A DNA stretch of 64,000 nucleotides from the NCBI GenBank assembly GCA_951406725.2, contig OX597814.1, positions 110,050,001 through 110,114,000 on the forward strand, in the 5' to 3' direction. This document shows, piece by piece, positions 10,101 through 63,519 of the stretch. The first letter of the stretch is position 1, and each line of letters opens with the position of its first letter. The position numbers were made by a program, and so were the translations under genes. A model generated the notes under the pieces. That model was not told the DNA's origin, made no database searches, and saw only the letters and a list, made by a program, of their open reading frames with translations. This DNA is from Octopus vulgaris. Lineage: Eukaryota.

Positions 10101-10884
10101 GATAAGACGAACAGAGAAAAAGTTGGCTGTGGATGACTAAAAGTGATTTAAAACCGGAAACAGAGGCTCTAATCTGTGCTGCCCAAGACCAAGCACTAAG
10201 AACAAACTACATAAAATACAGAATAGACAACACACCAGGAAGTGATAAGTGCAGAATTTGTGGACAAAATGGTGAAATTGTATGGCATATAACTAGCCAA
10301 TGTATGCCACTAGCCCAGAAGGAATATAAAAGATGCCACAACAATATAGCCAGGCTTGTCCATTGGACACTTTGCAACAAGTATGGACTTGACAGAGCAA
10401 AAAATTGGTACAAGGCATTGTCGAAAATGGAACTGCAAAGATCCTACAGGATTTTATGATTCAGTGCGACCATGAGATAGAGAATAGGAAGCCAGATATG
10501 GTGTTAATTGAGAAAGAAAGCAAACTATGCTGGATCATAGATATAGCATGCCCAGCTGACAACAAGGTATGTGACAAGGAAGAAAGAAAAGTCGGTAGAT
10601 ATGACAGGTTAGCTTGGGAAGTTAAGCAGTTGTGGTCGATGAAAAAGATGGTTGTAGTACCAATAATTGTTGGAGCCCTGGGAACAGTGAGCAAAAATCT
10701 CAAAGAAGTACATGGAACAAATAGGGGGTGCAATAAGGGTGGAGCACTTGCAGAAAACAGCACTGCTTGGAACCGCTTGAATAATCCGGAAGGCACTCAA
10801 AAAATAAGAGGTGTTACCTTAGATCACTGGTAGTGAACAGCTGACACCATAGTACATCTCCAGTGTTAGAAGCTGTGCAAAGGC
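10101..10884 (+). mobile_element. R4/Dong-type 3' fragment, subfamily A (zinc knuckle plus RLE)
   Basis: ORFs 10133-10459 and 10405-10833: ETEALICAAQDQALRT, CRICGQNGEIVWHITSQC (CCHC), KPDMV...IIDIACP; frameshifted; TAA flanks. Confidence 0.85.
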
Positions 10885-27966: not shown

Positions 27967-28740
27967 TGATGTAAAAATGGAGCAGAACCAAAATGCCGAT
28001 TCTGCAACGACATGATTGAAACAGTGGACCACCTAATCTCTGGATGTAAAGTCTTAGCACCAGTGGAGTATAAATTAAGACATGACAGAGTTGGCCAATA
28101 TCTCCACTGGCTAATAAGTCGGCATTACAATATCAAAACTGCCGACAAGTGGTATAATCACCACCCTGAGGCTGTAACTGAAGGAGAAAATGTAACGATT
28201 CTGTGGGACTTTCCAGTACATACAGACCGAACCATCAAAGCCAATAAACCAGATATTGTTGTGAAAGACCAAAACAATAAAGTTTGCTTATTGATCGACA
28301 TGAGCATCCCCTGTGATCATAATATCTCAGCGAAAGAGTTTGACAAGCTCAGAAAATATAAAGACCTACTCATTGAAATTGAGAAAATGTGGCATCTCAA
28401 GGTGGTTACAATACCAGTGATCGTAGGAGCACTAGGAATGATCAAGAAGGGAACCGAAAATTATATGAGAATGATCCCTGGCTTACCATCCCTGCAAGAA
28501 GTGCAAAAGATTGTCTTAACTGGTACATCACACGTATTGAGAAGAGCATTGTCGATGTGAGAACTGTTGCTGCTCATGTATTTTAATTTAACTTTAAGAA
28601 AAAAAAAAAAAAGAATAAACGAACGAACTACTGAGTTTGGTTTAATGGCCTACCAATATATACTATGAGTTTCTTTGCCCTAGGAGTCGGGAAGACACTC
28701 GGCAAGAAATGGAAGCAAATTTGAAAGAAGAAAAAAAAAA
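27966..28740 (+). mobile_element. R4/Dong-type 3' fragment, subfamily C, with an uninterrupted ORF end
   Basis: KCRFCNDMIETVDHLISGC (CCHC), RHDRVG, KPDIV...LIDMSIP, KLRKYKDL (PD-(D/E)xK RLE); stop at 28560; the 3' UTR is repeated at 29432-29538; TAA flanks. Confidence 0.88.
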
Positions 28741-28775
28741 GTAATAATAATAAAAGAATAATAATAATAATAATG

Positions 28776-28823
<48 letters not shown>

Positions 28824-28824
<1 letters not shown>

Positions 28825-29345
28825 GGTCACAGAAAACGAGAAAGGTCACAGAAAAGGTCACAGAAAACGAGAAAGCAACCATACTCTGGGATATGCCAAT
28901 ACACACAGATAGAGAAATTAAGGCCAACAGACCAGATATAGTTGTCAGAGATCATGAAGAAAAAAAATGCTTTCTAATTGATGTATCAATACCGGCAGAT
29001 GACAATGTGTCTCTAAAAGAAATGGAGAAACTCTCAAAATACAAAGACCTGGAAATAGAGGTAACTAGAATGTGGAATCTGAAAACAGAAACAATTCCTA
29101 TCATAGTAGGTGCATTAGGCATGATAAAAAAATATTCAGACAAATACATAACAAAAACACCAGGACTTACAAACACATATAACATACAGAAAATTGCACT
29201 ACTAGGCACTGCACACATCCTACGCAGAACACTTTCCATACAATAACCATCAGAGCATCACAACAAATCACAGCACATACCCAAGGCACACAGAACTGCG
29301 CTCGGTAGTGAAGTGAAAGCACGCTATAAAAATAAAACTACTGAA
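28824..29345 (+). mobile_element. R4/Dong-type 3' fragment, subfamily B, young
   Basis: ILWDMPIHTDREIKANRPDIV...LIDVSIP...KLSKYKDLEIE; open to the stop at 29246; TAA on both sides. Confidence 0.88.
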
Positions 29346-29432: not shown

Positions 29433-29618
29433 GTTTGGTTTAATGGCCTACCAATGTATACTATGAGTTTCTTTGCCCTAGGAGTTGGGAAGATGCTCGG
29501 CAAGAAATGGAAGCAAATTTGAAAGAAGAAAAAAAAAAATAATAATAATAATAATAATAACAACAACAATATTGAAAAATACCTTAGGAATGAGAACCCA
29601 GGTTCGAAATTCCCCCAA

Positions 29619-29654
29619 GACACCTGATGAAGGCTGGAGCCGAAATATTGTGTT
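29619..29654 (+). ncRNA. Minimal type I hammerhead ribozyme motif in a ~150-bp repeat (29570-29723)
   Basis: gacac-CTGATGA-a-ggc(tgga)gcc-GAAA-TA-T-T-gtgtt. The core is intact, stems I and II pair, and helix III is the palindrome AATATT. Confidence 0.65.
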
Positions 29655-30034
29655 AACAACAAACAAGAGGAGGACAAATATCCGTCAAATGTAAATAATT
29701 CCTCTTCTCTTAAATATAGAACTGCAAAGAAATGGAATTGTCTCTGCCCAAGTTTGAACTCATGATGTTGAGATATGTAACTCAATGATGAAATTCCTTT
29801 AACCTGATACATTTCTATATCTACTCCTCTACCTTGAATCATTTTAGGAATTAATGAGAATCCCTTGATATCTACTACTCGTCTTTCTTGAGAATGTTAA
29901 GAAATATAAATAAGATGAAATACGTCTCTAATTAAAATTGATTGGTTTGAGGCTTTAACACGGCAGGTTATTAAATTATATCTATGGTGTCCCTTACAAC
30001 CTGTATTAGTGATTCAGTTGACACTTTCTCTCAC

Positions 30035-43223: not shown

Positions 43224-43595
43224 GTAAGTCTAATTTTTTCTATTTTTTCTTACATTCTTCAATGAAATTATTCGTTCTGTAACAACTATGCCATTTATTT
43301 CTCCTCCTTTGCTGAAGGAACCAAAAGAAAAAAGAAAAATTCCTTTTTGTTGTTCTTTATTTATCTTTTTTCATACAAACTACTTTCTCTCATTCCGTTT
43401 ATTTCCAATGCCATAAACACTTGCAATACATTTCCTCACTTCTTTTTAAAGGATAGAAAAATACAAACTTTGTTTACTTTTAATTAAATTTCTTATATAA
43501 CTTTGCCGAGTTTTTTTTTCGTCCACCCAAACTTTCTGTAGACGTTAGCATAATTTCTGAAACTCTTTTTGTTGTTGTTTTCGTTAGTCATTCAG

Positions 43596-47074: not shown

Positions 47075-47972
47075 TTTAATATATATATATATATATCATC
47101 ATTATCGTTTAACGTCCATTTTCCGTGCTAGCATGGGGTGGACGGTTCGACTGGGGTCTGGGAAGCCAGGAGGCTGCACGAGGCTCCAGTCTGATCTGGC
47201 AGTGTTTCTATGGCTGGATGCCCTTCCTAACGCCAACCACTCCGTGAGTGTAGTGGGTGCTTTTTACGTGCCACCGGCAGAGGTGCCAGGGGAGGCTAGC
47301 AACCCCCACGATCGGTTGGTGGTTTTTTCGTGCCACCGGCACGGAAGCCAGCCAAGGCGGCATATCATGTGGTCATTTAACAGGATGTTATCAAGCTTGA
47401 GGCTATGAATAAACAAACACAATCAGAATAGATAATCAATGATTTCTGTAAGTGTTGGGGTCGATTTCTTCAACTAAACTCTTAAAAGCAGTACTCCAGC
47501 ATGGCCACATGCTAATAATTGAAACAAGTGAAAGGATATTGTTAATTAATGAAGCTCTAATAAGTCTGGGATGCATCCTGTCTTGGTTTATTATTAGTTA
47601 CTGCTTTGTCACTGAAAACATAAGTGTTCAGGTTTGTGTACTATTAATTGCTGTTAATTACTCATTAAGCATTCTTTTAATTGTAAAAGTGGATGAAAAT
47701 AGAAACTTTTTAATTAAGTCAGGGTGTGAAGGAGACATTGCAGGTGCCTTTCAAATGGGAAAGAATTAATAAAAAAATATGTAATAAAAAAACTGAGCCT
47801 CAAATTCTTCTCAAAGTTAGTTGTAACATTATTTACACCATTTAAAATGTTGTCCTTTGTAGGACGGACACGCTCTGTTGGCAAATAAACTTTACACCAT
47901 GTCACCTTCAGAAAAAATACCTGTTGACCCCTTTGTTACCATATAGGCACAAGTGTCCACCCCATGCTAGCA

Positions 47973-48382: not shown

Positions 48383-49077
48383 AGAAACTTGTTTCCTAAC
48401 CATGTGGCTTCGGATTCAGTCCTGAGCCCTGAGACAAGTGTTTTCTACTATTGTTGTAAGTGGATTTAGTTAACAGAATCTGAAAGAAGTGTGTGTGTCC
48501 GCCTTTGTGTTGACATCACATGGTGATTGTAAATGAGCATCATTGTCATACAAGCGAGGTTGTTTATTTTGAGTCTTCCAAGTAAAAAAAAATGTCTGGC
48601 CAAGAGGAGATAAAGGCTGGTGACAGGAAGGGCATCTGGCCTCTGTAGAAAATCTGCCTCAGCAAAATCTGTCTGATCCTTGCAATCATGGGAAAGTGGA
48701 TGTTAAATGATAAGGATGATGATGGTTTCTATTGAAATTACACTGGTTTTGTTTCATTGAATTTTGAAAAATGATAAAGAATTTAATTAAGTAACTTTGT
48801 CATCATTAAACTTGTGTTTGAAATGTAGTAAATTAACATGAAATATTATGGAAGGTTTTAATTTCAGTCATTTTAAAACTAGAAAATAGTTATCATAGAA
48901 TGAAGAGCCGTGCTGGACAGGTTGGTATCGAAAGTGGTTAATGCCAGCCAACTCAAGACTGTCATGAATCTAAAATACAAACTGCTTGTTTTAAAGTGTG
49001 CTAATTAAGTCTCTCATAAAAGTTTAATGTTAATTTAATGCCCAAATACCATTTTGATAATAACCTACTTCTAGCTG

Positions 49078-49138
49078 AACAATTATTCTGTGCTGATGAA
49101 GGGAAATAACCCAGAAATCGCGATACACAGATATTGTT
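49078..49138 (+). ncRNA. Minimal type I hammerhead ribozyme motif
   Basis: aacaat-tat-tctgtg-CTGATGA-a-ggg(aaataa)ccc-a-GAAA-TCGCGA-T-A-cacaga-t-attgtt. Both core boxes and the UH triplet are present, stem I is extended, and helix III is palindromic. Predicted cleavage is after 49125. Confidence 0.72.
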
Positions 49139-49628
49139 TTGAGCTGAGTGGGAGTACTAAATGCCCTTGTTCAAAAATATAAGGACACAGATTGTGTTGT
49201 ATAGCCAGCTGGAGACGATGTCTCCTGGGACTAAATTACAGCAGCATTTGTCCTAAACCAGGACTGCCATGTTATGTAGGCAAATAATCTTTACTCTAGA
49301 GTATTGTTGCTGAATATCTCTCGTTGAGAGATTTACAAGTAGTAATTTTCTACTAATGTTTTGTTTTCATAGGTTTTGAATTAAAATCCTCCACCAAACC
49401 TTAGTCACAATTAATGTTCCTAACACTAGCTTAATAACTAAGTTATTTTACTAAATTCTTTGTTATATTTAAAATTAATTGAAAGAAACACAGTGTATTT
49501 CAACAGAAATATGGTAACAAAAGTATTAAAGTGATCTAAATTAACACCTATCAAAATTTCACATTAATTCATGTTCCAAACACCTGTTTAATAATGACAG
49601 TTATTTTACTAAATCCTTCTTCGTTTAA

Positions 49629-49829
49629 GCCTTTAGCATTTAAACTGGTCATATCTGGCCATAATATTCTACCTGCTTTATGCTCCACCTGGCCAGAACT
49701 GACTACTCACACCTACCCTACAATTGCACCGTCAATTCTTGAAGTTGTGAGATAATGTCTAATTGATTCAAATCAATGTGAATAAATAGCATTACATTGG
49801 ACAGAGGAGTAATTGTGAATGCTAAAGAG
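49629..49829. mobile_element. piggyBac-like MITE
   Basis: TTAA|GCCTTTAGCATT ... AATGCTAAAGAG|TTAC; a related end lies at 25590-25670. Fragments of a second TTAA-type MITE lie at 48750-48941, 48985-49070 and 49345-49625. Confidence 0.6.
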
Positions 49830-51541
49830 TTACGGCAGTCATCATCATCACCATCATTGTCCATGCTGGCATGGGTTGGACGGTTTGACCGGGCTGGTAA
49901 GCTGGAAGGCTGTATTGGACTCCAGTCTGATTTGGCATGGTGTTCTATGGTTGGTTGCTCTTCCTAATGCCAACAATTCCGAGAGTATAATGGGTGCTTT
50001 TACATGTCACCAGCAAGGGTGCCATTTGCATGACACTGGGGGTGCTTTTACGTGCCACTGGCACAGGTGCCATTTGCATGACACTGGGGTGCTTTAACGT
50101 GCCACTAGATGATAACAAAAGAGTTAATAGTAATGACAAAGTTATTTTACTAAATTCTTCGTTATTTTCAAAGTTTCTGAAAGTTCTTGGCTCTAAGGAA
50201 ATGGTATTGGTCACTGCTGAGAAGGGAGCGAGAGTCAAAGAGTTGCAGAAAGTGATTGCCACCAATTGCTTTCATTACTTTTTGAGATGGAAATGTGTCA
50301 GGTATGGTTTTCTTTCATGTGGATGGAACACACAGAAGAGTTGTTTGTAACGATCTAATTAGCATCGTTGTTAGGTGTCATCTACTCTTAGCAGATTGAA
50401 TATCAAGGATCTCCATTTGGGTAGATCTAAGATCCATGATTTAGTATGGGCATGGGCACAAGAACACCCACTAGAATTTTTGATTTTAGAAATTTTGATT
50501 CTGCACCCCTACTTTTCTCAGCCTTAGAAAACAGTGAATAAAAAGCGATCTGTAAAAATTAGCTCAAAGTTAGATTTCTTCTCAAAAAACAAAAATAAAT
50601 TAAAACCAAAACAATAAAACCTTGTGTGTAATAATTTTTGGATCCCCTATGCAAATTTTGTTCCCGAGCCAGTGAGTATGGGTGCAGTTGGTAACAATCA
50701 CACTTGAATGGTGCTTTTTACATGCCACTGGCACAGAAGCCAGTTAGCTGTCAAGTTGGAAGAATTCTTGCTGTGCTTGGGAAAAATGCTTTGCAACATT
50801 TCGTCTGGTTTTACATTCTGAGTTCAAACTCATTCAAGGTTGACTCTGCCTTTTGTCCTTTTAGAGTCAATAAGTATTGATTGAGTACTGGGGTCAATGT
50901 AATTCCCTTACTCCCTACCCAAAACTTGCTGCCCTTGTAGCAAAATTCGAAACCAACTTTATTATTTTACATTGATGGATGTCAGAATAAATAGAATGAT
51001 TAGACAAAATGGTTCTGGGTTCAGTTTAATCAACTCCCCAGTTTCCCAAATCTAAGCCACCCTCTCACCCCAGTTCTTTTTTCTGTTACATAAATGTAAG
51101 ACAGAATCGGTGGAGCATTAACTTTTAGATAAAACATCTTACAATATTCAATTACATTTTTTTACCTTCAAACTTCAAGTTCCTTTAAGGTCAACTTTGC
51201 CTTTTGTGCTCCCTTGGTCGATAAAGAAACTACCTGTAATATACTAGGTTTGATTTAATCAACTCTTCCAGTCCCTCAAATTTTTGGGCTTTCATCTGAT
51301 TATTTTACCTTCATTGAGGTGAACTTATTGCAGAATGTCAGGCTTTGTGCATCCATGTTTGGACATTGTCCAAGACTGTCTGTCATTTGTTTTTAGGATC
51401 AGTTTGATAAATGCCATAATTATATTAGTTTTGATTCAATAGACATCAGTGTATTCTTTGCAAAATTTGCTTTCTACTTAATCATATTTATATATGAAAT
51501 GTGTGTGTGTGTGTGTGCGCATATATACATACACACACATA

Positions 51542-62472: not shown

Positions 62473-62976
62473 TTTTGCATGGCTTCTGACATTGGAGATG
62501 TACTACGGTGCCAGCTGTTCACTACCAGTGAGCTAAGGTAACACCTCTTATTTTTCGAGCGGCTCTAAGCAGTGCTGTTTTCTGCAAGTGCCCCAGCCTT
62601 ATTGCAGCCCTTATTTGTCCCATGAACTTCTCAAGATTTTTACTCACTGTTCCCAGAGCTCTGATAATTATTGGTACTACTACCATCTTCTTCATTGACC
62701 ACAACTGCTTTACCTCCCAAGCTAACCTGTCATATCTATCGACTTTCCTTTCTTCCTTATGGCATACCTTGTTGTCAGCTGGGCATGCTATATCTGTGAT
62801 CCAGCATAGTTTGTTTTCTTTCTCAATTAAGACTATGTCTGGCTTCTTCTCCTCTATCTCATGGTCGCACTGAATCATAAAATCCCGTAGGGTATTTGCA
62901 TTATCATTTTCAATGATGCCTTCGGGTTTATGTTCATACCACTTTTTTGCTCTGTCTAGTCCATACTTGTTGCAAT
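62473..62976 (-). mobile_element. R4/Dong-type 3' fragment, subfamily A
   Basis: ORF 62522-63004: WYEHKPEG...KPDIV...TDIACP...DRLAWEVKQLW; TTA flanks. Confidence 0.85.
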
Positions 62977-63020
62977 AATGATAATTGTTACAACTTTGCA
63001 ACAATTATTATTATTATTAT

Positions 63021-63468
63021 TTATGGTTTCCTTTCATTATAACGTAGTATGTGGGTTGTACTCAAGGTTATCATTTGTAGTTCACAGAAATTGGAGTTAC
63101 CAGGGAATTGCTTATTATACTTCTCAGCTCCCTTCTTTATCATTCCCAACACACCAGTTATTACTGATATCATCATAGTCCTAAGCTTCCCCATATTTGT
63201 GATTTCAATTTGCAGATCTTTATAGTGAGAAAGCTTTTCATATTCTTTTCTTGAGACATTTTGATCTTGTGGGACAAATATATCAATTAACAGACAAGTT
63301 CCTCTATTGTAGTCTTTGATCACAATGTCCGGTCGATTGGAGTCAATTTTTCTGTCTGTTTGTATTGGGAAGTTCCAAGGGATGGTGACACCCTCAACAT
63401 TTATTACAACCTCTGGATGATGCCTGTACCACTTATCATGGGATTTAATTTTGTAGTATTTGCGAGCA
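63021..63468 (-). mobile_element. R4/Dong-type fragment, subfamily E
   Basis: KYYKIKSHDKWYRHHPEVV...WNFPIQTDRKIDSNRPDIV...LLIDIFVP...KLSHYKDLQIEI. Confidence 0.8.
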
Positions 63469-63519
63469 TCATCATCATCATCATCATCATTATTATTATT
63501 ATTATTATATTATTATTAT

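Follow-up and report, generated by a model that had tools for sequence, protein, structure and literature searches.

The hammerhead motif and its setting

The window analysed here is a stretch of 64,000 nt from Octopus vulgaris (OX597814.1, positions 110,050,001-110,114,000, forward strand), within which all coordinates below are counted unless they are given as unit positions. At 49078-49138 it carries a type I hammerhead motif, which sits inside a single-arm insertion of a repeat that we call family A, with copies of a TTAA-type MITE on either side. The features of the locus, all on the plus strand, are listed below; the GAAA box, stem I and the outer stem are read directly from the sequence, while the cleavage point is placed by hammerhead numbering.

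48969-49064 (+), left flank: old fragment of the same MITE family as the right flank
49067-49352 (+), family A single-arm insertion, 5′-truncated, unit positions 68-353, 92.7% identical to the family majority
49078-49138 (+), type I hammerhead motif: outer stem, stem I, core boxes, 3-bp stem II and palindromic helix III
49078-49083 / 49133-49138 (+), outer stem
49087-49092 / 49126-49131 (+), stem I
49093-49099 (+), core box CTGATGA, C3-A9, site of the U3-A8 double change in sister family B
49100-49113 (+), stem II segment, three G-C pairs with a 6-nt loop, A-A closed: A49100, GGG 49101-49103, CCC 49110-49112, A49113
49114-49117 (+), GAAA box
49117-49124 (+), self-complementary helix III, palindrome ATCGCGAT, predicted only between two molecules
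49125/49126 (+), predicted cleavage point after the AUA triplet, unit 126/127
49202-49233 (+), two-tier hairpin with compensatory changes in the sister families, a candidate protein-binding element
49295-49298 (+), end site of 'short' arms, unit ~296-299 (65 of 158 arms end at unit 292-310), putative second start of reverse transcription
49299-49352 (+), ~55-nt 'tail' running to the family's fixed 3′ end (reached by 70 of 158 arms)
49351-49529 (+), right flank: younger TTAA-type MITE copy without its first 48 nt, directly 3′ of the insertion

The motif contains the CUGANGA and GAAA boxes and an NUH triplet in the right order, and every part that the initial annotation had listed in calling it a minimal type I hammerhead is present at this place. 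Stems I and II are predicted to fold with a probability of 0.84-0.99 in contexts from 61 to 501 nt. A descriptor that asks for the core boxes, 5 bp in stem I, 3 bp in stem II and a palindrome for helix III matches the window twice, at this motif and at an unrelated one at 29624, and matches none of 300 order-2 Markov simulations. The simulations speak against the hammerhead being a chance look-alike inside an ordinary repeat. That idea could appeal to the Rfam scan proposed with the initial annotation, in which no hammerhead model matched at E<=10 over the 2.5 kb scanned, and to the lack of a compensatory signal within family A, but it is also contradicted by the covariation of four families described below, including a C3-G8 to U3-A8 exchange, and we regard it as scarcely credible.

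Helix III is of the dimer type, as had been recognised at the outset: in the monomer it is predicted to form with P=1e-4, and the self-duplex of the 8-nt palindrome has a predicted energy of -10.1 kcal/mol. These fold energies, together with the accessible text of two earlier studies (PMC4209133; PMC6765202), suggest that the hammerhead would cut only as a dimer.

The window holds further elements. Another hammerhead-like motif, unrelated to the first and shortened in stem II, lies at 29618-29655 (+), and similar motifs in three other loci (L020, L076 and L083) mark it as a member of another abundant family. Fragments at 10106-10833, 27970-28560, 28725-29246, 62522-63004 and 63021-63509 resemble the C-terminal part of non-LTR retrotransposons, with its zinc knuckle and restriction-like endonuclease.

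The insertion had originally been bounded at 49063-49338 and described as an orphan, a whole monomer that splits one MITE. Its limits are now corrected to 49067-49352, and what they enclose is a 5′-truncated piece (unit 68-353 of 353). The right flank corresponds to bases 49-229 of a 229-bp TTAA-bounded MITE at 94% identity and the left flank to bases 42-139 at 64% identity; because the two overlap in MITE coordinates and differ in age, they are separate copies, and the insertion does not simply split one MITE. A terminal-repeat reading of the left flank was discarded as weaker than the 96-nt internal match. No target duplication is seen around the insertion, and no other family A copy lies in the 64-kb window.

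Some observations concern the MITE itself. An inverted pair of its copies, 48726-48941 (-) and 49351-49529 (+), brackets the insertion. In the left MITE arm, one low-depth contig has two A>G differences, which could be editing or alleles; one T>C difference occurs in a single low-depth contig, and the A>G and T>C changes give no strand call. Elsewhere, the 229-bp MITE is found in tandem at L078 and L105, with a period of ~253-256 bp. The MITE also occurs at L117.

Family A and its sister families

The family A majority unit is 353 bp long and non-coding. Its longest stop-free stretch is 48 aa in the sense direction, it contains no long ORF, and the reverse transcriptase (RT) and GIY-YIG ORF is absent from it. 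Taken from cut to cut, the unit is strongly self-paired, with a fold z of -8.0 against 100 dinucleotide shuffles. A search of the genome with 49063-49338 gave 69 matches from the best 40 of 3,487 first-look candidates, the best being ~90% identical, and exact 35-nt patterns have 319 genome-wide matches in the case of the ribozyme and 983 in the case of the 3′ part, which removes the label of orphan; reversed control patterns gave 0 matches. Scaling the exact matches by the share of sampled arms in which the pattern is exact (13 of 47 for the ribozyme, 22 of 52 for the 3′ part) yields an estimate of at least ~1,150 arms with the ribozyme and ~2,300 3′ ends, both probably underestimates. Non-CpG divergence within the family is 4.0% per site.

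Three sister families accompany it in the genome, of which B came from a chance match in one locus and C and D from two further matches. Sister B (L191:4627-4990 and L142-L171; 2,734 first-look candidates) is a closed unit of 362 bp, 1.4% diverged, with the same two end sites as family A and a unit fold z of -7.3, while C and D (L192-L211 and L212-L231) have a stem I and palindromes of their own. Additional relatives lie at L094:3322-3409 and, inside the window, at 47861-47899. Families A and B are 57% identical and have in common a long stem I extension and two hairpins. Their joint fold contains 18 double and 6 single compensatory pairs of 74, a count that leans high since the fold was fitted to the A and B sequences themselves.

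Between families, with stem pairs read by eye because the alignments place some gaps wrongly, stem I next to the core is CTGTG/CACAG, CTGCA/TGCAG, CCAGA/TCTGG and ACACG/CGTGT in A to D, respectively, and helix III is ATCGCGAT, ACATGT, ACTAGT and ACTCGAGT. In the core of sister B, U3-A8 replaces C3-G8 in nearly all sampled copies, and stem II covaries even among copies of sister C, as GGG/CCC and GAG/CTC. The stem covariation called for by the initial annotation is therefore present between the four families, the C3-G8 to U3-A8 exchange included, and absent among the copies of family A, where compensatory changes give no signal. The families also differ at two further positions: the pair closing stem II is A-G in the family A ancestor and A-U in sisters B and C, and the cleavage triplet is AUA in family A and GUC in B and C, on which grounds the family A ribozyme may be weak. 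Sister B, younger at 1.4% divergence, is the better test object.

Decay after insertion and the state of the window copy

Once inserted, family A copies decay almost neutrally. The two CpGs of helix III, intact in 30 of 64 and 39 of 63 copies, are lost like the other 11 CpGs of the family, for which the intact share ranges from 0.39 to 0.61. Core changes number 20 versus 26.9 expected (p=0.10); for core and stems together the figures are 54 versus 71.8 (p=0.015), a weak deficit at most, which leaves fully neutral decay unproven. Among 45 complete ribozyme copies, the core is kept in 33, a perfect palindrome in 17 and both in 10. Set beside the covariation between families, this near-neutral decay within the family indicates that the ribozyme was under selection in source elements, and not in the inserted copies.

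The window copy had been singled out as well preserved, a distinction that it loses within its family: of the 45 copies, drawn blind to the ribozyme, 11 keep ATCGCGAT and 10 keep the core and a perfect palindrome. Four of its ten CpGs are kept and six have decayed, with the stem II closing CpG among those lost. At this closing position, family A copies have CG, CA and TG variants, the mark of CpG decay, which makes A-G the ancestral state and the A-A mismatch a lesion acquired by the window copy.

It had also been proposed that the ribozyme could cut host pre-mRNA. Here, the window copy would be an active or co-opted intronic ribozyme that cuts the plus-strand pre-mRNA of a host gene, either alone or in trans with family transcripts, and its intact core and palindrome, the predicted folding of stems I and II in their local context and a palindrome that would permit trans pairing with other transcripts are all in keeping with this. 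Against it, the copy is alone in the window, its helix III is predicted with a probability of only 1e-4 in a single molecule, 10 of 45 randomly drawn copies are equally intact, six of its ten CpGs including the one closing stem II have decayed, in line with the near-neutral decay of the family, and minimal hammerheads of metazoans cut poorly, dimers included, according to the accessible part of PMC4209133. Nor was a host gene identified: neither the 14 window ORFs nor 140 ORFs selected among 228 filtered candidates in the 100 kb to either side have a Pfam match over the cut-off, a screen that short exons would escape. The putative plus-strand intron of the initial annotation found no confirmation in this screen. 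We consider host cutting very improbable, and the window copy is most likely inert today.

Assembled contigs from four runs guessed to be RNA cover 48514-51486 piecewise in two runs of one study. No splice joint is found among the 15 joints shown of 135, and as the runs are only guessed to be RNA, these contigs are no firm guide to strand or expression. One of them begins precisely at 49126 but was rejected as a cleavage end: its first 31 letters stop at a private variant at 49156, so that a graph branch suffices to produce this start, assuming 31-letter words. A loose end at 43248 was dismissed as a splice when it mapped 25 Mb away.

Architecture of family A insertions

Insertion architecture was read from 80 loci on two contigs, drawn from the 100 places that head the list of 3′ pattern matches and chosen regardless of the ribozyme; neighbouring places were merged, and three previously sampled loci and the last five were left out. 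These loci hold 158 arms, of which 70 have their 3′ end at the unit end (345-353/1-10), 65 at unit 292-310 and 23 elsewhere, so that the family has two fixed 3′ sites ~55 nt apart. In 55 loci, a tail arm and a short arm stand head to head, 14 have a tail arm only, which is the type that the window copy matches, 6 have a short arm only and 5 are of other kinds. The arms of head-to-head pairs are 5′-truncated. Target duplications of 8-15 nt, with a mode of 10, are present in 34 of 53 scored pairs, where ~0.5 would be expected from shuffled pairings; the measure may take in a few bases common to the element end. AT content is 72-74% in the flanks versus 62% for the loci.

The 5′ ends of the arms are scattered, with no pile-up at unit 127. 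Six arms do begin at unit 124-127, but similar clusters at 115-116, 146 and 159-160 deprive this group of value as a signal of the cut site. Of all 158 arms, 51 cross the cut site, 22 cross the unit junction and 14 are longer than one unit. Two same-strand ribozymes occur in only 3 of 80 loci, and family A is accordingly not a classic long tandem array. Fixed 3′ ends with an optional tail, 5′ truncation and an inverted 5′ copy are traits of non-autonomous Penelope-like elements, and all are present here. Together with the 353-bp unit and the lack of a long ORF, this Penelope footprint upholds the initial view of a small non-coding retroelement of the Penelope or retrozyme type.

The window copy would then be one tail arm, whose partner arm, along with the first 48 nt of the MITE, was either never made or later deleted. 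A later deletion of the short arm and these 48 nt would explain the missing target duplication.

A probable Penelope-type partner

Intact 781-aa RT and GIY-YIG ORFs exist in the genome. No autonomous element with family A sequence was found in 30 GIY-YIG loci (3 kb) and 20 regions (9 kb), a sample that is a small part of 6,136 first-look candidates, and the 3′ ends of the sampled Penelope-like copies show no similarity beyond independent insertions of families A-D.

Since this partner search was small, one may ask whether the copies are mere stumps, the pseudo-LTR ends of an autonomous Penelope-like element (PLE), with no independent small unit, given that a tail, an inverted 5′ copy and 5′ truncation are described as standard in autonomous elements in the accessible part of PMC8557442. 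However, 22 of 158 arms pass over the junction and re-enter the family A unit directly, and sister B has a similarly closed unit of 362 bp. When 180 family loci were compared with two PLE proteins, 6 had a match, one of which was the query's own locus, and no match took the place of an ORF between two units. This makes the stump explanation improbable, and an independent small unit is the preferred reading.

Autonomous elements were observed alongside. A young Penelope-like family (L172, L173 and L174) has many 781-aa RT and GIY-YIG frames in a two-frame layout, the other frame lying upstream, overlapping, reaching up to 479 aa and having no Pfam match over the cut-off. Within these autonomous elements, one subfamily (L191:5598 (-), L036, L038, L040, L041, L049 and L055) carries a hammerhead near its 3′ end, followed by TA repeats. 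The hammerhead has a U3-A8 core and a CATG palindrome, the same core variant as sister B in otherwise unrelated sequence.

A model for the mobilisation of family A

Our main reading, to which we assign a probability of roughly 80%, is that the motif lies in a 5′-truncated, near-neutrally decaying copy of a 353-bp family, and that this family probably owes its spread to a Penelope-type RT-endonuclease acting in trans on an RNA template, in which the hammerhead is expected to need a dimer for cutting. In the first step, a source locus longer than one unit would be transcribed, and two hammerheads would pair via the helix III palindrome and cut. The cut-to-cut monomer may then be closed into a circle, a step that we favour at slightly better than even odds: a ribozyme that selection has preserved should work on the very molecules that are copied, yet the cDNA arms show no stop at its cut. 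In the third step, which the genomic footprint records, an AT-rich target is cut with a stagger of 8-15 nt, and two arms run outward from a head-to-head joint, one reaching the tail end and the other stopping ~55 nt short of it, presumably because each 3′-OH starts cDNA synthesis from one of two sites within the RNA. Finally, the inserted copies decay almost like neutral DNA.

With the same element and enzyme, the template could instead be an uncut linear multimer transcribed from a tandem locus, with no circle involved. Tandem loci of family A do exist, and arms that read through the cut site fit a linear multimer equally well. Uncut RNA was the dominant substrate of the Anolis element in vitro, where ribozyme mutants had no effect on insertion (PMC11167929, accessible part), a result that favours a linear template. 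What a linear multimer leaves unexplained is a pairing-perfect, dimer-competent ribozyme kept through compensatory changes in four families, and its tandem sources are rare (3 of 80 loci). In favour of the main reading, derived variants are common to opposite arms in 11% of cases versus 5.6% in unrelated loci (31% versus 7% in sister B). Tandem units within one arm share 29-31%; as some of these units look like later local duplications, their sharing does not separate circle from multimer. The linear template is thus a serious contender, which we place somewhat short of even odds, and the circle is kept in the preferred reading.

A bolder extension, which we advance tentatively and hold to be possible but not probable, is that at least four non-coding circular RNAs of ~350 nt radiate in this genome in a viroid-like manner, with a conserved fold, a covarying hammerhead and a shared protein-binding hairpin, and would be written into DNA by a Penelope enzyme dimer, with the two strands of a staggered cut serving as primers at two fixed positions of a single circle. 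If this were true, thousands of insertions would document two-ended Penelope integration as it happens in vivo, and a minimal RNA substrate would be available for testing it.

The window copy itself is ordinary repeat debris, and the family-level footprint and the sisters are worth more than the locus. The two fixed ends, the 8-15-nt duplications and the four-way covariation provide concrete substrates for questions about the Penelope enzyme, namely its requirements for RNA elements, the use of one or both strands as primers and the circular or other form of its template.

Comparison with known systems

The comparisons that follow draw on the accessible portions of the cited sources. In these, the movement of animal retrozymes is so far a proposal, and the purpose of the Penelope hammerhead is called unclear. 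Animal retrozyme repeats have been argued to derive from Penelope pseudo-LTRs, and dimer cleavage was seen in 1 of 9 tested (bioRxiv 10.64898/2026.07.22.740005). Like metazoan non-LTR retrozymes (PMC7229834; bioRxiv 10.64898/2026.07.22.740005), family A has a non-coding unit of ~350 bp, a type I hammerhead with a weak palindromic helix III, strong self-pairing, many solo derivatives and co-occurrence with Penelope-like elements. Unlike them, its long arrays are rare, and its insertions are mostly two-armed fold-backs with a tail and a target duplication. A loose definition of non-LTR retrozymes fits, as the 353-bp unit falls within 150-450 bp and stands head to tail (22 of 158 arms cross the junction). 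By the preprint's criterion for an active retrozyme (bioRxiv 10.64898/2026.07.22.740005), the window copy, being single, does not count as one, and 3 of 80 family loci qualify by position. Xenopus families are matched by 21 Repbase Penelope-like elements, whereas for family A no matching autonomous pseudo-LTR was found among the 30 and 20 loci sampled.

With hammerhead-bearing Penelope-like elements (PMC4209133; PMC8557442), family A shares 5′ truncation, an inverted 5′ copy, an optional tail, partial tandems and a palindromic helix III, and differs from them in having no RT/endonuclease ORF and a tail of ~55 nt, as opposed to 30-40. Its 3-bp stem II and a stem I extended to a long rod reverse the arrangement in Schistosoma, where helix II has 7-8 bp and helix I 4-5 bp, while the U3-A8 core of sister B is also reported for Schistosoma Cercyon (PMC4209133). 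In vitro, the Anolis element nicks both strands and extends them, starting at two internal positions of the RNA that delimit the tail (PMC11167929). Like this Poseidon element of Anolis carolinensis, family A has two internal 3′ ends at fixed places downstream of its hammerhead, AT-rich targets and arms on both strands; Poseidon is autonomous and was studied in vitro, whereas the family A footprint is genomic and lies on a non-coding passenger (PMC11167929). A small non-coding passenger of the Penelope type with head-to-tail copies is also known as MRC1 in Chlamys (PMC8557442). The Chlamys elements, in contrast, are similar to their autonomous partners at the 3′ end, and canonical hammerheads went undetected in most of them (PMC8557442). 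We did not find family A described in the accessible literature on octopus and cephalopod hammerheads with Penelope elements, although Repbase, Dfam or the supplements of these papers may list such families. Taken together, family A is a non-autonomous Penelope-like element, or non-LTR retrozyme, of a known kind and a new family.
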